Source of the DNA: Chlamydiota bacterium
GTDB taxonomy: Bacteria > Chlamydiota > Chlamydiia > Chlamydiales > JACKPQ01
Direction: 5' to 3'
Length of the DNA: 64,000 bases
NCBI GenBank assembly: GCA_021772435.1
Contig: JAJFLZ010000025.1
Location: 55,502 to 119,501, forward strand
Within the stretch, counting starts at the first letter, position 1. The number at the start of each line of letters is the position of its first letter. The translations under genes were made by a program, and so were the position numbers. Shown here piece by piece: positions 11,028 to 60,281 of this stretch. The notes under the pieces are model-generated. The model saw only the letters and a list, made by a program, of their open reading frames with translations, was not told the DNA's origin and did not search any database.

Positions 11028-11250
11028 TTTATCGCGAGAAGAGGCTGGTAATCGCTGGGTGATTCCAGGTGTTTATGATAGACGTCGTAATATGGCGAGC
11101 AACTCTAGTCAAGGTGTATAGTTTAAATTTTGACTGATAAACCTAAGGCGCTTTTTTTGTCGGCATCTTCGTTTCGCTTTTGGGAACCACTATAGATGAT
11201 TCTGAATTTACTTATATTGCCTTAATCGGCTGCAGTATATCACCTTTAAC

Positions 11251-11417
11251 TAACCTGAACTCTGGGTTTATATCATTCATCTTCAGGCATCTTAGCCGCC
11301 ATCTTGCACCCTTTTTGAGCTCATCTATAGCTTTTGGCTATAGAATCGCAAAAAATGGCACAATCTGTCACCTAATCTGCTCTGAATCTAAACAATCAAA
11401 ACCCAGAGTTCAGGTTA
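11251..11417. mobile_element. MITE-like element, copy 1 (167 bp including the TA flanks)
   Basis: Perfect terminal inverted repeats: TA-ACCTGAACTCTGGGTTT at 11251-11269 and AAACCCAGAGTTCAGGT-TA at 11399-11417. There is an internal hairpin CTATAGC-ttttg-GCTATAG. It is homologous to 59986-60153, and its right end matches 57534-57585. Confidence 0.7.
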
Positions 11418-14400
11418 ACTAAGTTTTTTGGCTCTTATTTTATACGTATTTTTACATTCAATACCCTTTCCATTCATCCAAGTAAGAGGTTTAGAGATTT
11501 TTTGCATTTCTGCATTTTGGGTGCCGGTATTAAAAACCAAGTAAAGGCGATAGCTATTAGGCTCTTTGTTCATGAGGTCCCATTCATTGCTAGACATCGA
11601 AAAATGAACATCATCTTGTTGTGTCGATTTGATTTCTATGTATTTAGTCACAGGAGGTTTTGCAACTTTTGTCTTAGTTAGCTTCATATCGTAAGGCTCA
11701 TAGCTTTCCTCGTGTTCATTTAGCCATTGAAGTGCTATTTTTGTCCCCTTGTTCGTTGTCAGTTCATATTGGTCATTACCAGTAAGCTGGAAGGAAGATG
11801 GAGATTTCTTTTCATAATGTGCTGTTAGCTCACTGAAAGCAAAGCTTTCGCCCCATTTTCCAATTTCTATTTTTTGTTTTTCTGATGTCCGAGCTTTGTA
11901 TTTTTTCGCAGGTTTTTTTGCTTTAGGTTGCTTACTTGGTAATGGCTCACTTTGAATTTTCAGTTTTTTGATTCCTCTGGGTGGAGGTAATGAAGATAAG
12001 AGAGGATCAGGTGAGTGGGGTATGGAATCGTCTGGCGACCCCGGGCTGCCTACGGGAGCTGTGCTCGGAGGGTCTGTTACCGGATTTGGGGGAAAGAATT
12101 CATCCGATTCTACATTAAGATCTGGGATATCAGGTGATGGAGGTTGGGATAGTTCAGGGGAGGTGGGACAAGGGATTGGTATGGAGCTGGTGTTATTAGA
12201 ACATTTAGTTAGTTGGTCTAAATACGTTTGAAGATCGCATAAGTCTCGTGCAGGTATTCCGTTATCATTTATCCAGTCTTGTATGTTTACTGCCTGTCTA
12301 GTTGATATCCCCTCTTTTAAATAAAAAATATCTTTAAACTCTTTTAGTTGATTAATACCATTAAATTCTAAGTAGTTTCCGATTGCTTCTGTAATTTTTT
12401 CCTCAATGCAACTATTCGTATAATAAATATTATTGTTGAGTTGAGCTATGTGCAGCAGGCGCATGCCTTTGCGCTTCTTTATGGAGCATTCTTTGTATAT
12501 ATTTAACTGATTAAGCAGATTAAATAGATTTTTCAACACATCTTTATTAGGCTGATTTAAATAATGGGCAGCGCTCCATGCTAGTAAGGGAAGTCTTTTT
12601 TTGACTCTATCTTTGTAAACTGTATCCAGTTTCTCATCTGATATATCGCTAGGGTTAATGGATCCAAATTCGACGGGGCGTCCAAAGTGCTCTGCTAACA
12701 ACCGCATGTCTGTTTCTTCGAGAATATTTTTAAACCATTGACCAGCCTCAAAGGTTGGATCAGTCCCTTGCACTGCAAAGCACGTAAGCGATTTCACATC
12801 TCTCCACTGATTATTATTTGCTACAAAAAGCCATGGTTTTCTTAAATAACTCTTTTTTTGAACACAGTCATAGCTGTCCCAATTTGTCACTAACTGTCTG
12901 ATGGCGATCTCGTATTTTTTCAGGTCTGGTCGAGATTTTGCTAAATCTATCAGTAGGTCGTAACAAAGCTCTAAGGAAAGATGTGTTTCAAAACCTAAAT
13001 GTTTGATGAGATCATCAGTTAAATCAGACTGAATTTTGGCTGAAGTAACCCTTGCCATATTTAAAGCTTGTAAATCTGGGCTGTAGAGGCTGGTTATCGT
13101 TTCATATTGGTTATCTGTACCCAGAATGCACTTGTTATGCCCTAAGTAATATTGAATGTATGACAATTTTTTGCCAGATAAGGATCTTTTTTGTTTGTTT
13201 CTAGTAACGAATTGGCATTGTTTATCTATTCGCAAAAAATCTTTCGAACTGACTTTTAGGCAATTCCAGAAGTAGTTTGCAAAAGCTGGGTGTTTCATAT
13301 TTTCCATGTTAGGAAAGTAGCAGAAGTTTGTAAATTGGTGTGTTGATGTAATTGGATCTTTAAGAATTTGATTTTGACCACGAACGAGATAGGTTAGGTA
13401 GGAATCTAGGTTGTGTATCCCACATCTTCTCAGCTCTTCAACACTTGTGGGTTCGTCCACACAGTGGAGTTTGAGCTCTGTTTTTAACCCTAGACCAAGA
13501 AAAAACTGTAAACGTTGCTTTTGTTCTTCTCCAGTTAAATAACTCGGACTCAAAAACGCGCTTGTAGAATTTGGCATGAGGTGTTCCAATGGCAGGCTAT
13601 CGGAGGCGCGATAATCTGTAGGAAGGTAAAGTTCGCGTGCCGGGCTAAAGCCTTTTGACTGATTTAAAAGTGACATTGTTTGCAGTGTTGCTAAATGTGA
13701 ATCGTGAATCAGCCCAGTAGAAAACAACCTAAATAAGTACTTGATAATTTGAGAGCTGGTATCCCATTCAATCACATTTTGTGAGAGGTAGCCAGGTATA
13801 TATTTATCAACAACCCGCTCTATTGATAAGGGTTCTATGCCTATTTGTTTAAGCCATCTTCTGAGTTGGCCGTCTTGGTCGAGCTCAAGAATAGCTTCGC
13901 TAATGGTTGGTATTTCAATGAATGATGGTGGTTGTGGGATTTCGCGATCAGGTGGAAAAGAAATCTCAGATAGTTTTTTTGCTTTGCCCGAATTTGAGAT
14001 AACAAAGGCTATATTTTTGAGCTGATCGTCTGAAATCATACCTGAAGAACATCGGTCTTTCAAAAATAATAGCGCACGATAACAAAGCCCTGAGTCAGGG
14101 TTTTGCTGAAAAATCTTCTCTAGATGGGCTAGTATTTCTTTATCTGTGATTTTTTTGGACGTAAATAAGGAGAGCTTGTCTATTTGTTTCAAATCTGGAT
14201 GAGCAAGATCATTAGGAATTAAAGTTCTTGGGAGATCGTTCAGGAATGCTTTATAAAAGCCTGTGCCATCTATTATGCACTCTTTCGCTTTGAGCAGCTG
14301 CTTAGGGTCATGACAGTTTGGAACCCATGCGTAATTGTCTAGCCCAAACATAAATCCATTCTTATAAGAGGAGCAGAACCTATTAGGTACACTTGCGATC

Positions 14401-15467
14401 TCTGGTGGAGCGGAAACACTCACCACATTTTTCCAATCCGAACTTGCAGCAATTTCCCTTAAGCATTCAAAATGTAGAGCAGCAAGCCAGTAAAATATAT
14501 GATCGTTGAAAGTGTCTTCAACGAGGTGCTCTCGTTGTGCTTCTAAGAGAAATTCGGTATTAATCCCAAAGGGAATGCCCAGCTTAACTTTTGTTGGTAA
14601 CGTATTAAAAAGCGGTAAAAGAGTTTGAGGAAAAGCATCGATTTCATTCGTGCTATTTAAAAAGAAAACAAAAGTGACTTTAATTTCGTCCGCATTTTTA
14701 ATTCGATCAGGACAAGTGGTCGTGTTTAAACTTTGCAAGTGTGGGTGGAGGCTTGTGATATTTATGGTTTTTGTCTTAATCAAATAATTGTTTTGTGCTC
14801 TGTTTGTAGACAGGCTCCTGACGGGCTCTTGATCCGTTCGTACAACAGTAGTAGTTTGCCCACCGCTGGCTGTGAACGATATCTTTTTAATATTTCTTAG
14901 AAATAGAAGTGGAGTTGGGTTGTGGATAAAATCATTCATTTGATTGATGTACTTGTCTGGATGAATGAGCTTAAAAATGAAGGTAACCTTGGATGTATCT
15001 ATACCTTCTGGTGCGGATTCCCAAATGGGTAGCATTTGCCAGGGTGCACCTGGAAGTGTGTGCCAATAGTCTTTGTCAAAACAAAAAGTGTAGTTTTGAG
15101 AAATGATGTGGACTTTAGATGCAAGAGACAAAGTTCCCTTAAAGCCGATGCCTTTAAAGCCCGTCATTTCAGTATTCTCAGACTTGTTAACCAATGTTCG
15201 GTTTGCAAAGCTTGTAATTTTTTCTACATCTCTGTAATCAAAGTGTTTGCCATCATGGGTAATCGTAAGTTGGTCCTTATCTAACTTAAAGTAAACATTT
15301 AAGCCTCCAGCATCGTCGGTATTTTGCAAAAGCTCGTTTATAAAACGACCGTCTAAAGTACCCTCGGCAAAGTTGGTTATATCAGCTGCAAGCTGAAACC
15401 ATTGAGGATTGTCATAGCGCTTGTAAAGCTTTTCGACATGAGCCTGAGGACTGATTTTTCCTGCCAT
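11415..15467 (-). CDS. Giant GHKL (sacsin/MORC-like HATPase_c_3) ATPase with a C-terminal DUF3883/NO VEIN-C-like PD-(D/E)xK-type domain
   Basis: 1350 aa. The Bergerat N-box ELLQNTDDA lies at nt 15309-15335, followed by GFKGIGFKG. A Pro/Ser- and Lys-rich linker sits near aa 1095-1190. The C-terminus carries GESFAF, PYDMKL, YIEIKST, FSMSSNEW and YRLYLVFN. Confidence 0.75.
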   Translation of the reverse strand: MAGKISPQAHVEKLYKRYDNPQWFQLAADITNFAEGTLDGRFINELLQNTDDAGGLNVYFKLDKDQLTITHDGKHFDYRDVEKITSFANRTLVNKSENTEMTGFKGIGFKGTLSLASKVHIISQNYTFCFDKDYWHTLPGAPWQMLPIWESAPEGIDTSKVTFIFKLIHPDKYINQMNDFIHNPTPLLFLRNIKKISFTASGGQTTTVVRTDQEPVRSLSTNRAQNNYLIKTKTINITSLHPHLQSLNTTTCPDRIKNADEIKVTFVFFLNSTNEIDAFPQTLLPLFNTLPTKVKLGIPFGINTEFLLEAQREHLVEDTFNDHIFYWLAALHFECLREIAASSDWKNVVSVSAPPEIASVPNRFCSSYKNGFMFGLDNYAWVPNCHDPKQLLKAKECIIDGTGFYKAFLNDLPRTLIPNDLAHPDLKQIDKLSLFTSKKITDKEILAHLEKIFQQNPDSGLCYRALLFLKDRCSSGMISDDQLKNIAFVISNSGKAKKLSEISFPPDREIPQPPSFIEIPTISEAILELDQDGQLRRWLKQIGIEPLSIERVVDKYIPGYLSQNVIEWDTSSQIIKYLFRLFSTGLIHDSHLATLQTMSLLNQSKGFSPARELYLPTDYRASDSLPLEHLMPNSTSAFLSPSYLTGEEQKQRLQFFLGLGLKTELKLHCVDEPTSVEELRRCGIHNLDSYLTYLVRGQNQILKDPITSTHQFTNFCYFPNMENMKHPAFANYFWNCLKVSSKDFLRIDKQCQFVTRNKQKRSLSGKKLSYIQYYLGHNKCILGTDNQYETITSLYSPDLQALNMARVTSAKIQSDLTDDLIKHLGFETHLSLELCYDLLIDLAKSRPDLKKYEIAIRQLVTNWDSYDCVQKKSYLRKPWLFVANNNQWRDVKSLTCFAVQGTDPTFEAGQWFKNILEETDMRLLAEHFGRPVEFGSINPSDISDEKLDTVYKDRVKKRLPLLAWSAAHYLNQPNKDVLKNLFNLLNQLNIYKECSIKKRKGMRLLHIAQLNNNIYYTNSCIEEKITEAIGNYLEFNGINQLKEFKDIFYLKEGISTRQAVNIQDWINDNGIPARDLCDLQTYLDQLTKCSNNTSSIPIPCPTSPELSQPPSPDIPDLNVESDEFFPPNPVTDPPSTAPVGSPGSPDDSIPHSPDPLLSSLPPPRGIKKLKIQSEPLPSKQPKAKKPAKKYKARTSEKQKIEIGKWGESFAFSELTAHYEKKSPSSFQLTGNDQYELTTNKGTKIALQWLNEHEESYEPYDMKLTKTKVAKPPVTKYIEIKSTQQDDVHFSMSSNEWDLMNKEPNSYRLYLVFNTGTQNAEMQKISKPLTWMNGKGIECKNTYKIRAKKLS

Positions 15468-15949
15468 ACTCTACCTAAATGTTTACGGTTTTTTTTACGT
15501 CTAGACCTAGAAAGCAGGTTTGCTAAGTTTTTTGCCCAACTGGTGATGGCTTGTTGAAGCTCATGCACTCCAATTTCTGACAGGCGTTTGTCGTAAGTTG
15601 TGTAGCCCTGGATTAAGTGATCTTTCAAAACCTGGGTAGCCCATTTTCTGAACGCGATCCCTTCTTTTGAGCTGACTCTATAGCCAAGGGAAATGATGGC
15701 ATCAAGGTTGTAGTATTCTACCTGATAAGTCTTTCCATCTTCGGCAGTTGTTGCAAATTTTGCAACAACTGAATTCTTGCTTAACTCTTTGGATTTAAAT
15801 ATATTGGAGAGGTGTTTTGAGATAGAAGATTTATCTCTGTTAAATAATAATTTTAATTGATTCATCGAAAGCCAAACGGTTTCATCAACCAAGCTGACTT
15901 CTAGATTGACCTTTCCTTTTTTGGATGTGTAAATCGCAACTTCTGTCAT
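15377..15949 (-). CDS. RhuM-family protein, short form (N-terminal domain only)
   Basis: 190 aa. EVAIYTSKKGKVNLEVSLVDETVWLSMNQLKLLFNRDKSSISKHLSNIF...YYNLDAIISLGYRVSSKEGIAFRKWATQVLKDHLIQGY matches the RhuM N-terminal region as I recall it. The canonical C-terminal half is missing. The last 91 nt overlap the giant ORF. Confidence 0.7.
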   Translation of the reverse strand: MTEVAIYTSKKGKVNLEVSLVDETVWLSMNQLKLLFNRDKSSISKHLSNIFKSKELSKNSVVAKFATTAEDGKTYQVEYYNLDAIISLGYRVSSKEGIAFRKWATQVLKDHLIQGYTTYDKRLSEIGVHELQQAITSWAKNLANLLSRSRRKKNRKHLGRVWQEKSVLRLMSKSFTSAMTILNGFSLQLI

Positions 15950-52171: not shown

Positions 52172-52630
52172 ATGCAATGTCCATTTTGCCACACCGTTGA
52201 ATCGAAGGTTACAGATTCTAGAGACGCCCCAGAGATGAACGCTATTAAACGGCGCCGTCAGTGTTTGGAGTGTGAGAAGCGTTTTACAACGTTTGAAACG
52301 ATCGATCTGACGATTCAAGTGAAAAAACGGGACGGTGGCTATGAGGATTTCCAGACGGGTAAGTTGATTAGAGGATTAGATGCAGCCTGTCGTCACACGC
52401 GCATTAGCCACGATAAGGTTAGGGCGCTAGCTTCTGAGGTTGCAGCGGAATTGATGGAGAAGCAATTGCGTGAAATTAGTACCACACAGCTAGGAGAACT
52501 CGTCATGGATCATTTGAAGAAGCTCGATATGGTTGCCTACATTCGATTTGCGTGTGTGTACAGAAGGTTTAAGGATGTAGATGAGCTGATGGATGCTTTG
52601 AGTTTGGCGTCCCCAGAGGAGAAAAGATGA
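52172..52630 (+). CDS. nrdR: Transcriptional repressor NrdR
   Basis: MQCPFCHTVESKVTDSRD...RRRQCLECEKRFTTFE zinc ribbon plus an ATP-cone. The track ORF starts 2 codons earlier. Confidence 0.92.
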   Translation: MQCPFCHTVESKVTDSRDAPEMNAIKRRRQCLECEKRFTTFETIDLTIQVKKRDGGYEDFQTGKLIRGLDAACRHTRISHDKVRALASEVAAELMEKQLREISTTQLGELVMDHLKKLDMVAYIRFACVYRRFKDVDELMDALSLASPEEKR

Positions 52631-52989
52631 AGAAAAGCGATATCGAAAAAATTAAACAACGTCTTTTAAAGATGCGAGAGCAGATTGTTAATCAAGTGCG
52701 CGAAGCATCAGAAGATGTTAAGTCTGTGGATGAGGTGAAAGGTTATTCTCAACATCAAGCAGATGAGGGCACTGATGATTTTAATCGAACGATTAGTTTG
52801 TCAGTTTCGAGCAAAGAACAAGAGATTTTACGCCAAATCGATCGCGCACTAGAAAAGATCGATGAGGGTACTTATGGCGTTTGCGATGTGACAGGAAAAC
52901 CTATTCCTGCTAAACGGTTAGAAGCGCTTCCTTATGCAGCGATGACTGTTGAGGCGCAAGAGCAAGTAGAAAAAGGATTATTATCATGA
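52627..52989 (+). CDS. dksA: DksA/TraR-family protein, Cys-poor (zinc-independent type) variant
   Basis: 120 aa with a coiled-coil region and C-terminal YGVCDVTGKPIPAKRLEALPYAAMTVEAQ. Only 1 of the 4 canonical Cys positions is retained. Confidence 0.8.
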   Translation: MKKSDIEKIKQRLLKMREQIVNQVREASEDVKSVDEVKGYSQHQADEGTDDFNRTISLSVSSKEQEILRQIDRALEKIDEGTYGVCDVTGKPIPAKRLEALPYAAMTVEAQEQVEKGLLS

Positions 52990-53495
52990 AAAGAGCCCTG
53001 CCGTTTGTTTTGTTGTTTGTTTTACTCCTGGGTGCAGATGCTGCGTCTAAGTGGTGGATTCAAGAGTCATTTGTGCAGATGCCGTTTGCGTCTCACGGAT
53101 ACCCATATGGGGGTATAGGAGTATTCAAGGATTTTTTCGGTATTGAGTGCTCCCTTGTGCATGTATGGAATAGAGGTGCTGCTTGGGGCTCTTTTGCCGG
53201 CGCTTACACGCTTTTGCTGGTTTTACGCATTGTGGTAAGCGTAGCTTTAGCCATCTATTTATTTGTTTGCAAAAGACCTGCACAATCCACTTTGCCCCTC
53301 ACACTCATTTTGTTTGGTGCCGTTGGTAATATCGCCGATTGTTTCTTGTACAACCATGTCATCGACATGATTCATTTAAAATTTTGGGGCTGGTCATACC
53401 CTGTCTTTAATTTAGCAGACGCTGCTATTTGTATTGGGGCTCTTTGGCTGGCTGTTCAGTCTTGGCGCTCTCGTGAACGTATCGAAGTGGCTTAA
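52986..53495 (+). CDS. lspA: Lipoprotein signal peptidase II
   Basis: 169 aa with NRGAAWG and FNLADAAI. Confidence 0.9.
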   Translation: MKRALPFVLLFVLLLGADAASKWWIQESFVQMPFASHGYPYGGIGVFKDFFGIECSLVHVWNRGAAWGSFAGAYTLLLVLRIVVSVALAIYLFVCKRPAQSTLPLTLILFGAVGNIADCFLYNHVIDMIHLKFWGWSYPVFNLADAAICIGALWLAVQSWRSRERIEVA

Positions 53496-54057
53496 GGTTT
53501 ATGCGCTATTAGAAGTAGCCGAGTTAAAAGAATTGCTTGGGGACTCGTGCCTCTATAATGTCTCTGAAGTTTTGACAAATCCCGGTGCGCTCATCGATAA
53601 TAATAGGTTTTTTGCAGCGTACGCAGCGTATGTCGAATCGCTTAAGACTGGGAAAAAACCTGTGATTGATCGCCATTTGTTTTCAGCAGCTATCTCGAAG
53701 GAACCGGTGCCTATTTGTGACCTTGGTAAGGGACGTTTTATCGCTAAGCCTGATAAGCCTGTTATCCAGATGCAACCACATGCTTTTGTGATAGCGGGTG
53801 GTAAGTGCTTATCGATGGTGCACGGAGAGGAAAGCATTAGTTGGGGTTTGCAGTTTGCCTACCCACAAATTGCGATGGACGCGGCTGGCCATTTGGAGAA
53901 AACGCTTCGAACAACTGAAAATGGCGCGCTATTTTTGAGTTTGCAAAAATGGATGCGTGAGAATACTAAACCCGCAAAGCTCACTATCGATGGCAAGCAA
54001 ATGAATGTATCTATCCGCTTAGGTAAGCAATGGACGGGGAGGCTTCCTCATGATTGA
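53434..54057 (+). CDS. Hypothetical protein (start uncertain)
   Basis: The track ORF starts at a TTG inside lspA. Alternative in-frame starts are GTG 53473 and a TTG near 53531. I recognise no motif. Confidence 0.5.
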   Translation: MGLFGWLFSLGALVNVSKWLKVYALLEVAELKELLGDSCLYNVSEVLTNPGALIDNNRFFAAYAAYVESLKTGKKPVIDRHLFSAAISKEPVPICDLGKGRFIAKPDKPVIQMQPHAFVIAGGKCLSMVHGEESISWGLQFAYPQIAMDAAGHLEKTLRTTENGALFLSLQKWMRENTKPAKLTIDGKQMNVSIRLGKQWTGRLPHD

Positions 54058-55195
54058 AATCATCTCAATTGGTGATGAGCTCCTCAATGGGTCGACGCTC
54101 AATACAAATGCTAAATATTTGGCTTCCCAAATTTTTGATATGGGTTATCACGTAGCTCACATGACAACGCTTCCCGATGATGATGACATTTTATTTGCTG
54201 GTATTGAAAAAGCGCTTTCTAGATCAAAAATTGTGATCACAACGGGAGGTTTAGGTCCAACGCTCGATGACAAAACAGAAGAAATTGTGACGAAACTCCT
54301 TCCCGATGGTCTAAAAAAGCTCGATAATACGATCGGATCAGCTAGTGGGTTGCTCTTTGAGGATCAAGGGCTCATTGTTTTGCCTGGTGTGCCGCGTGAG
54401 ATGGAGGCTATGTGGCAAAGTGTTCAGCCATACGTTAAAGAGCGTTTGGCAAGTGAAATACTTACGTATCACAAAAAAATCACGCTGTGCCATTTGCCAG
54501 AGCTCTCTGTTGATCCCACTTTACGCGAGCTGAAAAAAACGCTTCCCGCAATCGATTTTGGAATCTATCCCTCTTACGGCACACTTATTGTACGCATGAG
54601 CGCTTTAAAACCCGATGTGCTGGAAAAGGCGACAGATGTGATCACTGCAAAATTTTCCACCCAGGTCATGGCTCTTTGTGCCTGCAAAGCAGAAGAGGCC
54701 TTGCACACGCTTTTGATTGAAGAGAAAAAAACGCTTAGCTTTGCTGAAAGCTGCACGGGAGGAAGTTTAGCATCTCGCATCACAGCTCTGGCTGATGCAT
54801 CCACTTACTTTTTAGGAAGTGTTGTTTCCTACTCTAATTCAGCTAAAGAGCAAATTTTAGGTGTGAGCAAACAAACGCTAGAAACTCATGGGGCTGTCAG
54901 CGAAGAGATAGCGCGTGAAATGTTAGAGGGCGTGTTTGAAAAATTTGGCTCTGATTATGCCATTAGCGTAACCGGAATTGCAGGCCCCTCTGGTGGAACA
55001 AAAGAAAAACCTGTCGGGACTGTATGGGTAGCACTTGGTAAAAAAGGAGAAAAACCGCATATTGGCCTTGTGCCCAAAACAAAATCAGCGCACAAAAGAG
55101 AAACTATTATCGAAATCACAGCGACATTTGTCTTATCTAGTCTTTGGCGTTTAATCAAATATGGAATACCTCCATTTGAGGAGGACCATGACTAA
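54050..55195 (+). CDS. cinA: CinA-family protein (MoCF-binding domain plus nicotinamide-nucleotide amidase PncC domain)
   Basis: 381 aa with IISIGDELLNGSTLNTNAKYL, ITTGGLGPTLDD and a C-terminal domain carrying ESCTGG...VTGIAGPSGG. Confidence 0.88.
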   Translation: MIEIISIGDELLNGSTLNTNAKYLASQIFDMGYHVAHMTTLPDDDDILFAGIEKALSRSKIVITTGGLGPTLDDKTEEIVTKLLPDGLKKLDNTIGSASGLLFEDQGLIVLPGVPREMEAMWQSVQPYVKERLASEILTYHKKITLCHLPELSVDPTLRELKKTLPAIDFGIYPSYGTLIVRMSALKPDVLEKATDVITAKFSTQVMALCACKAEEALHTLLIEEKKTLSFAESCTGGSLASRITALADASTYFLGSVVSYSNSAKEQILGVSKQTLETHGAVSEEIAREMLEGVFEKFGSDYAISVTGIAGPSGGTKEKPVGTVWVALGKKGEKPHIGLVPKTKSAHKRETIIEITATFVLSSLWRLIKYGIPPFEEDHD

Positions 55196-55979
55196 CTCCT
55201 ATCAGCTGATCGACAGCGGGGAGGGGGAGAAGCTTGAGCAGTTTGGAAAACATCTCATTGCAAGGCCTTGCGCGCAGGCGCTCTGGCCCAAATCTCATCC
55301 AGAAAAATGGACGCCAGATAGCACATTTACGCGCGACCCCGATGGACATTGGGATAAAAAACTCACGTCACAATGGACAATCGAATTTTCAGGGCTAAAA
55401 TTTTTGGTCAAGCAAACTGACTTTGGTCACATGGGGCTTTTTCCCGAGCACGCGGGTCACTGGGATTGGATGCAAAAATGCATTCAGGGTAAAGATGCGC
55501 GCGTTCTTAACTTATTTGCCTACTCGGGAGCTGCAACGCTTGCCTTAGCAAAAGCTGGAGCAAAAGTCACACACCTCGACGCATCTAAGGGCATGGTCGA
55601 CTGGGCCAGGGAAAATGCTAAACTCAATCAGCTAGAAGATGCGCCGGTGCGCTGGATTGTCGATGATGCGATGAAATTTTTGCGCCGTGAGATCAAGCGA
55701 GAATCCTTCTACGAGGGTGTTATTTTAGACCCGCCCTCCTTTGGACGTGGCAAGCAAGGCCAGGTATTTAAAATCGAAGACGACCTGCCCGAGCTGCTCG
55801 CTTTATGCAAAGAAGTGCTCTCTGATACACCGCTCTTCACATTGCTATCTTGCCATACCCCAGGCATCACACCGCTTGTTTTGCGCCACATGCTAGGTGG
55901 TGGTGAATGCGGAGAAATGACAATACCCGGCCCGCTCGACTTGCCTTGCGGTAGCTTTGCTAGGAGATCCTATGCTTGA
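55188..55979 (+). CDS. Class I SAM-dependent (RlmI/RlmK-like) RNA methyltransferase
   Basis: The ATG at 55188 follows GAGGAGGA. LNLFAYSGAATLALAKAGAKVTHLDAS and ILDPPSFGRG are present. Confidence 0.8.
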   Translation: MTNSYQLIDSGEGEKLEQFGKHLIARPCAQALWPKSHPEKWTPDSTFTRDPDGHWDKKLTSQWTIEFSGLKFLVKQTDFGHMGLFPEHAGHWDWMQKCIQGKDARVLNLFAYSGAATLALAKAGAKVTHLDASKGMVDWARENAKLNQLEDAPVRWIVDDAMKFLRREIKRESFYEGVILDPPSFGRGKQGQVFKIEDDLPELLALCKEVLSDTPLFTLLSCHTPGITPLVLRHMLGGGECGEMTIPGPLDLPCGSFARRSYA

Positions 55980-56742
55980 AATTACAAGCGCGCAAAATCC
56001 GCGCCTAAAAGCAGCGCACAAACTTAAAGATCGCAGAGAGCGAGATAAAACCGGCCTATTTGTGATTGAAGGTTTTCGCGAAATCTCAAGGGCTAAATCC
56101 ATCGAGATTGAAACACTTTTCATCTGTCCAGAACTTTTCCTCGGCAGCAACGAGGGAGCGCTGATACAAAGCACCAACGTTGAAACGCTAAAACTATCGC
56201 CAGCCTTATTTAAAAAACTCTCCTTTCGCGATCGCCCCGACGGCCTCTTTGCTGTTGGAAAAAAGCCTGAGTCCCAGCTGCCAAAACTATCAAATAATCC
56301 CTTTTTAGTTATAGCCCAAGCCATTGAAAAGCCTGGTAACCTCGGATCCATTTTGCGCTCTTGCGATGCTGCAGGTGTCGATGGATGCATTGTTGCTGAT
56401 CGCTGCACAGATATCTACAATCCCAACGTAGTAAGAGCAAGCGTTGGTACACTATTCACTGTTCCTACAACTGAAATGCCATCCGATGAGCTCCTGCCGT
56501 GGCTGAAAAAAAACAATATCCAGATTGTTGCGACAACACCTGATACCGATTTAGAATTTACGCACGCTGATCTCACCGGTCCCGTGGCCATTGCTGTGGG
56601 CACGGAGCAGCTCGGGCTTTCCGATGCCTGGCTCTCTCAAGCCGACATCAAAGTGCGCATTCCCATGTTAGGGGAAGCTGACTCACTCAACGTGGCCGCC
56701 GCCACAACGCTGATGCTGTATGAAGTACTTCGTCAACGATAA
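55972..56742 (+). CDS. TrmH/SpoU-family RNA 2'-O-methyltransferase
   Basis: MLEITSAQNPRLK from the ATG at 55972, then IEKPGNLGSILRSCDAAG and IPMLGEADSLNVAAA. Confidence 0.85.
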   Translation: MLEITSAQNPRLKAAHKLKDRRERDKTGLFVIEGFREISRAKSIEIETLFICPELFLGSNEGALIQSTNVETLKLSPALFKKLSFRDRPDGLFAVGKKPESQLPKLSNNPFLVIAQAIEKPGNLGSILRSCDAAGVDGCIVADRCTDIYNPNVVRASVGTLFTVPTTEMPSDELLPWLKKNNIQIVATTPDTDLEFTHADLTGPVAIAVGTEQLGLSDAWLSQADIKVRIPMLGEADSLNVAAATTLMLYEVLRQR

Positions 56743-57457
56743 CCACCTCCTGATTGTCGAAAAGCCGGCCGGCATGCTCACCCAAGGTAACCACAAAGAA
56801 CCAGGCCTAGAAGAGCTTTTGCGAAAAGATTACAAATACCTTTACTGCGTGCACCGTCTCGACAAACCTGTCAGTGGCTTAGTCGTTTTTGCCAAATCCA
56901 GCAAAGCCCTCTCGCGTCTCAATGCCTCTCAGCGCGAGGGCAAATGGACCAAAAAATACCTCGCTCGTGTTGAAGGAAATCTCACTGGCTCTGGCACACT
57001 TAAGCACTACCTTATTCATGGCGATCACAAGGCAGAGATTGATCCATCCGGCAAGCTGTGTATTTTAGATTACGTTGTAAAAGATGGCTCACTGACGTTA
57101 CGCACAGAGGTGGGTTCAGATGCGCTGGCGAAGGTGCCAGGATACAAAAATGACGACGAGGCAAACTCCAAAGAGTTTGGTGAGGAGGAAGATGCCGTAG
57201 ATTGGTGCCTGCAGCAGGCAGATGAATTCAGATATGTGCGTAACGTCAGTGTTTTAGTTGAAATCACCTTGCACACCGGTCGCTACCACCAAATCCGCGC
57301 GCAATTTGGCGTAATTGGTCATCCCATTCTTGGCGATCAAAAATATGGAAGCAAAACATTGTCGGGCGCTATTGCCTTGCATCATAGCTATTTGTCGTTT
57401 CCGCATCCTGTCAAAGACGAGCAGGTAGAAGTAATTTGCCCTACTGATCGGTTTTAA
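56720..57457 (+). CDS. RluA-family pseudouridine synthase with an acidic insertion
   Basis: 245 aa with HRLDKPVSGLVVFAKS and HTGRYHQIRAQF. An insert of about 50 aa (KNDDEANSKEFGEEEDAVDW) lies between the motifs. Confidence 0.85.
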   Translation: MKYFVNDNHLLIVEKPAGMLTQGNHKEPGLEELLRKDYKYLYCVHRLDKPVSGLVVFAKSSKALSRLNASQREGKWTKKYLARVEGNLTGSGTLKHYLIHGDHKAEIDPSGKLCILDYVVKDGSLTLRTEVGSDALAKVPGYKNDDEANSKEFGEEEDAVDWCLQQADEFRYVRNVSVLVEITLHTGRYHQIRAQFGVIGHPILGDQKYGSKTLSGAIALHHSYLSFPHPVKDEQVEVICPTDRF

Positions 57458-57533
57458 TATATCAACCCGCATACAAATATATTTGTTTTAGCTTCGAGTC
57501 TTTTCTACTGCTCTGCCTAATTATCTAGCGCTT

Positions 57534-57585
57534 GTCACCTAATCTGCTCTGAATCTAAACAATCAAAACGAAAGAGTTCAGGTTA
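57534..57585. mobile_element. Solo right-end fragment of the MITE family
   Basis: GTCACCTAATCTGCTCTGAATCTAAACAATCAAAAC is identical to 11367-11402. It is followed by a diverged TIR, gaaAGAGTTCAGGT-TA. No left TIR is present nearby. Confidence 0.6.
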
Positions 57586-57692
57586 TTAGTCCAAGACAAA
57601 GAACCGAAGTGAAGGCGAGAAATTTGCACAAGAATCGGCGCTGCTAAAAACCGGCATTTTGAATTTACTTTGATATACACATGTTGTTTTAC

Positions 57693-58994: not shown

Positions 58995-59135
58995 GGAGTC
59001 CTCAAGGAGGTTAAGTTAGTAAACGGCTTCAGAGTATTTTGACAAGCCATTTTTGTAAAACATTATCTCTAGTTCCCGGACAAAATCTATACTGAAACCG
59101 ATTGACAATTTGGGAGTATATCTAGTAAGAGCGAA

Positions 59136-59843: not shown

Positions 59844-59985
59844 ACGACCTCCACGCTCGGATCGCAATTTTACTAGTGTAATATTTTTTGTGCTAGTATT
59901 TTTTTTTGATATAGATAGTACGATTTGCATCTCACGCGTTTTGCTAACGCATCTTACGCGAGAATAGGGTGGCAAGTCGGGCTGT

Positions 59986-60153
59986 TAACCTGAACTCTGG
60001 GTTTTTATCACTTATCTTTAGGAGTCTCAAGTCCTATAATGAGATCATTGGAGCTCAAAAATAGGCATTTGGACTATGTTTTCACTCAAAATGACTCATT
60101 CTAAAACTCGATACTCTCTAAATATCAGCAATCTAAACCCAGAGTTCAGGTTA
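59986..60153. mobile_element. MITE-like element, copy 2 (168 bp including the TA flanks)
   Basis: TA-ACCTGAACTCTGGGTTT (59986-60004) and AAACCCAGAGTTCAGGT-TA (60135-60153) are perfect inverted repeats, identical to those of copy 1. The subterminal sequence is similar (TATCACTTATCTTTAGGAGTCT vs TATCATTCATCTTCAGGCATCT). Confidence 0.7.
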
Positions 60154-60179: not shown

Positions 60180-60281
60180 AGATTTCGCTCTAGATCTCTA
60201 GTTCCAGAGCGAAATCTACGAAAAAACATGAGATTTGGCTCTGGAATCCGCGTTGGAGAGCGAAATCTATTTTTTTGTTCA
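60180..60281. terminator. Tandem pair of 12-bp-stem hairpins (two units of about 51 bp), a bidirectional terminator-like structure downstream of asd
   Basis: Unit 1 is AGATTTCGCTCT-N14-AGAGCGAAATCT followed by an A-run. Unit 2 is AGATTTGGCTCT-N14-AGAGCGAAATCT followed by a T-run. Read on the minus strand, the first hairpin after asd is followed by TTTTTT. Confidence 0.55.

Follow-up and report, generated by a model that had tools for sequence, protein, structure and literature searches.

The 64,000-nucleotide stretch of DNA analysed here (the window) comes from an uncultured member of the Chlamydiales and contains two full copies, and one fragment, of a short repeat. These sequences are probably bacterial MITEs, non-autonomous elements with terminal inverted repeats, and belong to a small family that comprises at least two subfamilies and is most likely mobilised by a mechanism of the IS630/Tc1-mariner type. 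The data are consistent with derivation from IS630-type elements, and the repeats have the structure of MITEs. The positions of the elements, and of the features surrounding them, are listed in Table 1.

Table 1. Positions of the repeat elements and of adjoining features in the window.
Feature	Start	End	Strand	Description
Copy 1 (subfamily 1)	11251	11417		163-bp element plus TA on each side; imperfect palindrome from end to end; lies between the 3' ends of two convergent genes, a heavy-metal P-type ATPase gene (+) and tmtA (-)
Copy 1 left terminal inverted repeat	11253	11269	+	ACCTGAACTCTGGGTTT; exact match
Copy 1 right terminal inverted repeat	11399	11415	-	Exact match; AAACCCAGAGTTCAGGT as read before TA
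tmtA	11415	15467	-	Tiamat defence protein, 1350 aa, full-length; Sacsin-type ATPase and NOV_C/DUF3883
Degenerate repeat end and flank	15500	15534		27/35 identical to the copy 1 right end and its 13-nt right flank
Subfamily-1 right-end fragment	57533	57585		53 bp; left border of the ORFan block
ORFan block	57586	59985	-	Three genes of 260, 169 and 264-279 aa, situated between the fragment and copy 2
Copy 2 (subfamily 2)	59986	60153		164-bp element plus TA on each side; located 3' of asd, and preceding the start of the 264-aa ORFan gene by 56 nt; both genes are on the minus strand

Each full copy starts with TA-ACCTGAACTCTGGGTTT and finishes with AAACCCAGAGTTCAGGT-TA. Hence, the sequence bears out an earlier note on this DNA, which had described two full copies bounded by TA and by perfect 17-bp terminal repeats. 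The count of the 17-mer agrees: there are 4 exact matches in the window compared with 0.16 expected, and none of 100 shuffled sequences had 4 or more. The inverted repeat is perfect for 17 bp (19 bp if TA is included) and continues in imperfect form to 36-41 nt, with 78-83% complementarity. Copies 1 and 2 are in the same orientation and are only ~69% identical; we therefore assign them to two subfamilies of one family. The earlier note had also considered the copies to be alike inside their ends. Consistent with this, the interiors are colinear, aligning with a z-score of 7.4 in the same orientation and 1.3 in reverse. Both elements also resemble their own reverse complements, with 69% identity for copy 1 (interior z-score 8.4) and 73% for copy 2 (z-score 9.6).

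The coding content of the elements amounts to a single open frame, a 55-codon read-through across the whole of copy 1. Of the three reading frames entering an element end, two hit a stop codon (TAA or TGA) immediately. At 163-164 bp, and with no transposase gene, the elements are within the size range of MITEs (50-800 bp) and their terminal repeats exceed the minimum for such elements (10-15 bp). The description of the repeats as MITE-like was thus apt; they are short, dispersed, non-coding, bounded by inverted repeats and have no transposase nearby.

A search of related genomes had been recommended in the earlier note. We scanned 185,579 species-representative genomes using the repeat end and two conserved subterminal bases as the query. 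This identified three loci (L003, L004 and L005), all in Chlamydiae MAGs. The loci are distributed between two MAGs and occupy non-orthologous sites. L004 spans a whole element (~157 nt), the left end of which is decayed; TA follows its right end. A PtsI-like gene takes its last codon and its stop from the ACC-TGA of this element. The stop codon of an RNase Z-like gene is provided by L005, a right-end fragment of 48 nt. L003, in Chlamydiae MAG JABDHB010000008.1, is a solo 21-nt end. In the section of L003 between positions 2130 and 2330, this solo end occupies part of a ~60-nt spacer between the arms (~75-85 nt each) of a large GC-rich inverted repeat, which is possibly another palindromic element family of that MAG.

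JGI metagenomes, scanned with the same query, yielded five loci, one of which duplicates the L003 contig. The remaining four were discarded as chance matches, having no TA, no partner end and no extended similarity. The IMG/VR viral scan, for which the query was the 17-mer alone, produced six loci. All fall in one conserved phage gene, and these were also attributed to chance. The repeat end had no match in the plasmid collection.

We also compared the 55-aa frame of copy 1 with 1.84 billion representative proteins using HMMER. There were two matches, P0190 and P0191, both of which are read-through ORFs; a protein word search with the same 55-aa translation returned nothing. P0190 contains a 95% identical subfamily-1 copy, nested in another palindromic element. 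The sequence surrounding this copy is homologous to the antisense translation of an element at window positions 57090-57251 (see below). In P0191, an unrelated ORF upstream is joined at its 3' end to an 81% identical subfamily-1 copy, which is read through. These two copies are known from protein translations and lie on NCBI contigs of 38 and 88 kb, which plausibly belong to the source assembly. Together, the genome scan and the protein search yielded five further loci (L003-L005, P0190 and P0191). The family thus has the dispersal to non-orthologous sites that is a defining property of MITEs; the copy numbers are small and several copies are decayed.

Logan assemblies of three SRA runs include contigs that are 100% identical to the window. 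These same-strain contigs end at window positions 11278, 11401 and 57561. With a k-mer length of 31, such stops place both ends of the interval 11249-11430, and the fragment up to position 57590, in other sequences as well. By the logic of assembly graphs, this implies that the read sets hold further copies with the same ends as copy 1 and the fragment. Copy 2 was assembled straight through by Logan contigs L012 and L013 and is therefore unique.

A flanking TA is the hallmark of IS630/Tc1-mariner transposition, and of MITEs moved by such transposases. In our data, TA adjoins six of the six intact ends. Because TA is itself palindromic, a 19-bp repeat that included it would give the same pattern. 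The earlier note had regarded TA beside other copies as a check on the family. The right end of L004 has TA beside it; in the short L003 and L005 remnants, a perfect 17-mer is accompanied by TG or TT instead. Outside copies 1 and 2 there is no direct repeat longer than TA. From inspection of the flanks, duplication of TTAA (as for piggyBac-like elements) or of a 3-bp TWA target was rejected.

A Pfam scan of window ORFs of at least 90 aa detected no transposase or integrase domain. There was also none in the precomputed Pfam annotations of the remaining window genes, which were taken mostly from identical Logan contigs and, for positions 52627-56742, by synteny with a relative (L015). The statement that the window lacks a transposase is thus correct at the sensitivity of Pfam. 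A full-length IS with these ends was absent from the 185,579 species-representative genomes, from JGI metagenomes and from IMG/VR. Hence, the IS630-family transposase with matching ends, for which a search had been suggested, was not found in the genome, metagenome or viral scans.

In the mechanism that we favour, a DDE transposase of the IS630/Tc1-mariner type would bind the repeat ends and transfer the element to a TA by cut-and-paste, so that the TA is duplicated. The transposase would be supplied from elsewhere in the genome, or may since have been lost. Alternatively, the elements could be mobile by other means. TA would then be part of a 19-bp repeat, and copies would arise with no duplication, by the action of some other transposase, or through recombination or segmental duplication. 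The lack of a matching transposase in the window and in all three scans is in keeping with this, as is the inseparability of TA from the inverted repeat and its loss from the L003 and L005 remnants. Furthermore, the right end of copy 1 recurs together with 13 nt of its flank, as seen from the contig break at position 11430 and, at 15500-15534, from a degenerate copy. Such recurrence would not be expected from clean transposition into TA and suggests that some copies were made by duplication or recombination. We nevertheless consider this alternative as a whole unlikely, though deserving of some weight, since TA at every intact end, with no longer direct repeat beyond it, is the signature of IS630/Tc1-mariner elements.

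The stop codon of tmtA also argues for duplication of a target TA. The gene was identified using PADLOC (TmtA, E-value 3.8e-146) and by its Pfam SACS and NOV_C domains. Its best homologues, which include sequences from Halobacteriovoraceae and Chlamydiales MAGs, are merely 34-39% identical; tmtA is therefore an accessory gene. It is a horizontally acquired defence gene adjoining copy 1. The TAA stop codon (positions 11415-11417, minus strand) consists of the last T of the copy 1 right repeat and the flanking TA. Beyond a conserved Y-[KE]-[IV] motif, homologues of TmtA have 2-6 further residues and the window protein has 6. Duplication of a target TA would imply an ancestral TAG stop codon in the same place. 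By contrast, a TA that belonged to the element, with nothing duplicated, would imply an ancestral TmtA exceeding every homologue in length by 12 residues. The comparison would thus favour duplication of the target TA, weakly but positively.

The remaining sequences in the window define a second variable region. In the fragment, positions 57533-57569 are 100% identical, over 37 nt, to positions 11366-11402 of copy 1. The 3' part is a diverged repeat end, GAAAGAGTTCAGGT, with 4 mismatches, and is followed by TA. The fragment had previously been reported as 52 bp with a 36-nt identity; it is real, but the correct figures are 53 bp and 37 nt. The genes of the ORFan block, which is given as 2.9 kb, had no Pfam match and no PADLOC match. 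One relative, whose asd is 71% identical, has no ORFan block; asd converges there on the RluA-like gene, with a gap of 40 nt. In relatives with 82% and 77% asd identity, an alpha/beta-hydrolase gene fills the interval between asd and the RluA-like gene. Hence, as had been proposed, the copies are at the borders of accessory blocks; copy 1 adjoins tmtA, and the fragment and copy 2 flank ORFan genes that relatives do not have. We recovered no empty site from the asd orthologues (82%, 77% and 71% identity), which carry no element and have intervals of differing content. At copy 1, there was no close tmtA orthologue with which to make the comparison. That available relatives provide no clean empty site is explained by the location of the elements, at the borders of variable DNA. 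Among the flanking genes in the window are those for type III secretion components, a Legionella_OMP-type porin, ankyrin-repeat proteins and ferrochelatase, and Chlamydiales or Chlamydiia MAGs are the named sources of the nearest asd homologues.

According to our model, the copies that persist would be harmless ones, located in variable accessory DNA or at the very 3' limit of a gene. An insertion in, or next to, a stop codon would leave the protein essentially intact because two of the three entering frames stop at once.

Positions 11396-11430 and the degenerate repeat end at 15500-15534 constitute a direct repeat of 35 nt on either side of tmtA. None of 200 shuffled windows reached a match of 27/35. 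The degenerate end is located a short distance upstream of tmtA, where a RhuM-like gene is truncated. This gene (PDC-S05/S23; positions 15377-15949, minus strand) has homology that ends near residue 148 of ~330. The locus is thus a small defence islet in a Chlamydiales genome, with a full-length TmtA homologue beside a truncated RhuM-like gene. We considered a subpopulation allele from which tmtA had been removed by recombination between 11396-11430 and 15500-15534. This was rejected; Logan contig L011 is unbranched across positions 15523-15553. A second ATPase gene remnant in the left flank of copy 1, suggested by repeat D9, was ruled out by tblastn.

Direct repeats bracketing an accessory gene recall the recombination sites of gene-cassette systems, such as integron attC sites or the VCRs of Vibrio. 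The elements share further properties with such sites. They are imperfect palindromes that start with TAAC and end with GTTA, they are found at the 3' end of accessory genes or bracket them, and their folding is strand-asymmetric (see below). Even so, we rejected this explanation and give it almost no credence. At Pfam sensitivity, the window encodes no integrase or recombinase, and there is no contiguous array; the 46-48 kb between the copies contain housekeeping genes, among them those for ribosomal proteins and EF-G. The RYYYAAC/GTTRRRY core is not matched by the flanking 7-mers. Moreover, perfect ends of 17-19 bp, common to copies that are otherwise diverged, typify transposase substrates.

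We examined folding of the elements as RNA, with z-scores calculated against dinucleotide shuffles. For copy 1, the minus strand folds with an energy of -84.7 kcal/mol (z-score -14) and the plus strand with -59.8 kcal/mol (z-score -8.5). The equivalent values for copy 2 are -76.2 kcal/mol (z-score -12.3) and -60.0 kcal/mol (z-score -9.3). The advantage of the minus strand is therefore ~16-25 kcal/mol for copies 1 and 2. The L004 element has the same strand bias, and the range is 11-25 kcal/mol for all three full elements; DNA energy parameters rank the strands alike. At mismatched arm positions, the minus strand has 6 G.U compared with 1 A.C, as well as 8-11 A.G. The consensus hairpin of the two subfamilies contains 59 pairs, of which 14 have compensatory double changes. 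Slid controls have 0-3 such changes. The predicted hairpin is therefore conserved through substantial divergence. Candidate causes are selection for DNA or RNA structure, fold-back of one end in each subfamily, and repair between the arms, with three sequences available for comparison. The earlier note had drawn attention to an internal hairpin, CTATAGC/GCTATAG, in copy 1. This is present, but it is not a separate internal feature; because the whole element is palindromic, it is merely the apex of one long hairpin.

The earlier note had also suggested that the elements may provide small RNAs or terminators. A scan of the elements for intrinsic terminators found no such signature, although each element is predicted to fold as a whole into a very stable hairpin. 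The elements had no match in Rfam, tRNAs alone reaching threshold in the window, and their sub-threshold matches are to generic long hairpins. A weak sigma-70-like promoter match is located at positions 59961-59988 (minus strand), with a -35 element (TTAACA) that straddles the junction between the left end of copy 2 and its flank. The match is directed towards the 264-aa ORFan gene, and such matches occur at chance frequency in the region.

The folding data raise the possibility that the host retains the elements as structured RNA modules, for example as 3'-UTR hairpins, stabilisers or RNase III sites. Selection would then act on the minus strand, and mobility would be secondary or extinct. 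The 14 compensatory changes, the superior folding of the minus strand in three of three full elements, and the excess of G.U over A.C in the arms all accord with this, and copies 1 and 2 are both directly downstream of minus-strand genes. Conversely, symmetric differences between the arms would also result from fold-back of an IS end or from inter-arm repair, and the asymmetry, seen in just three elements, could come from a common ancestor. Furthermore, the P0191 gene enters its copy from the opposite end, and no intrinsic-terminator signature is present. We consider a primary role in RNA structure to be very unlikely.

In the transposition model, an RNA-level effect may still be a consequence of insertion. 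Co-transcription of an element would place in the 3' UTR, or in intergenic RNA, a hairpin whose stem has about 60-65 base pairs. By analogy with Correia and ERIC sequences, the hairpin could change mRNA stability, processing by RNase III or read-through.

The bracketing of tmtA by the 35-nt direct repeat, and of the ORFan block by the fragment and a full copy, allows a more ambitious proposal. The element ends may serve as recombination boundaries for gain and loss of accessory or defence cassettes, with the hairpin possibly being a selected, strand-specific 3'-UTR RNA. Together with the in-frame element of the RluA-like gene (see below), this would amount to undescribed RPE- or Correia-like repeat biology in the Chlamydiae. 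We regard the proposal as speculative and improbable.

Many short bacterial repeats have similar properties. Correia elements have TA on both flanks and ERIC sequences insert at TA. The RUP elements of pneumococcus and the Nezha elements of cyanobacteria are IS630-derived MITEs that are short, TA-flanked and bounded by inverted repeats; they are presumably moved by a transposase from elsewhere, the IS partners being IS630-Spn1 and an ISNpu3-like element respectively. For the QMITE and RPE families, we know of no reported TA-flank signature. RUP and Nezha differ from the Chlamydiales family in having an identified IS630-family partner with matching ends; we found none for the elements described here.

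The Correia elements (CREE) of Neisseria are ~100-155 bp in length, have long terminal inverted repeats and have no known cognate transposase (PMC10969869). They are often beside genes and, when co-transcribed, form hairpins that are cleaved by RNase III (PMC10969869). The Chlamydiales family is similar in length, in its long terminal inverted repeats and TA flanks, and in having no known partner transposase. However, there is no sequence similarity, and palindromy in the Chlamydiales elements extends from end to end, whereas in Correia elements it is confined to the ends. In addition, Correia elements are present in >100 copies, compared with a handful for the Chlamydiales family, the members of which are known from sequence alone.

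ERIC sequences (also called IRU), found in Enterobacteriaceae and Yersinia, are imperfect palindromes of ~127 bp along their whole length, are located in intergenic DNA or 3' UTRs, and have orientation-dependent effects on mRNA stability (PMC10969869). Whole-length imperfect palindromy is thus shared with the Chlamydiales elements. Conversely, ERIC sequences are unrelated in sequence, belong to another phylum and form large families (30-700 copies). QMITEs, in Coxiella burnetii, and RPEs, in Rickettsia, are small palindromic repeats of obligate intracellular hosts (PMC10969869, PMC5896051). QMITE2 is mostly found in 3' UTRs, and RPEs are inserted in frame into genes (PMC10969869, PMC5896051). 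The element at 57090-57251 is likewise in frame, within an RluA-like gene, and subfamily-1 copies can be read through. The QMITE and RPE sequences are, however, unrelated to the Chlamydiales family.

Full-text searches of the literature did not reveal any account of MITEs from Chlamydiae, or any paper that gives the repeat-end sequence or cites the SRA runs, and Chlamydiae are absent from the list of host taxa in a review of MITEs (PMC10969869). Hence, the Chlamydiales family can be viewed as selfish DNA, consisting of MITEs of the Correia, ERIC or RUP kind, and is apparently undescribed for the phylum. MITEs are a well-known class, so the concept is unchanged and the value of the finding is local. 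The elements mark variable regions in which genes have been gained, namely the Tiamat gene tmtA and the ORFan genes. They break short-read assemblies of these organisms. They also offer a natural test case for whether chlamydial gene expression is influenced by long 3'-UTR hairpins. An active partner transposase, should there be one, would constitute a native TA-targeting system, which may be of practical use in a genetically intractable phylum.

The window contains other small repeats. The palindromic element at 57090-57251 is unrelated to the family described above. It is 162 nt in length (54 codons) and has perfect 17-bp inverted-repeat ends, CACTGACGTTACGCACA, which occur 2 times compared with 0.09 expected. 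The element is in frame within an RluA-like pseudouridine synthase gene (positions 56720-57457, plus strand). In L015, the orthologous RluA-like protein (68% identical) is without nearly all of the ~54-aa stretch. The element is thus a predicted RPE-like in-frame insertion, for which L015 provides a natural empty site. Its plus strand, the mRNA sense, folds better (-77.5 compared with -57.3 kcal/mol). P0190 represents another copy of this element elsewhere, with a subfamily-1 element nested inside.

Directly beside copy 2, at positions 60180-60268, are two tandem REP-like hairpins of 38 nt with arms of AGATTTCGCTCTGGAAC. The arms have 4 matches compared with 0.23 expected, and a half copy (59065-59089) is located between two ORFan genes. 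These hairpins look like a third small repeat family. The intergenic region at 17953-18049 contains short inverted repeats, ATTTTAGAT and ATCTAAAAT, together with motifs that resemble the REP-like hairpins. Logan contig L011 ends within this region, at position 17988, which suggests another repeated sequence.
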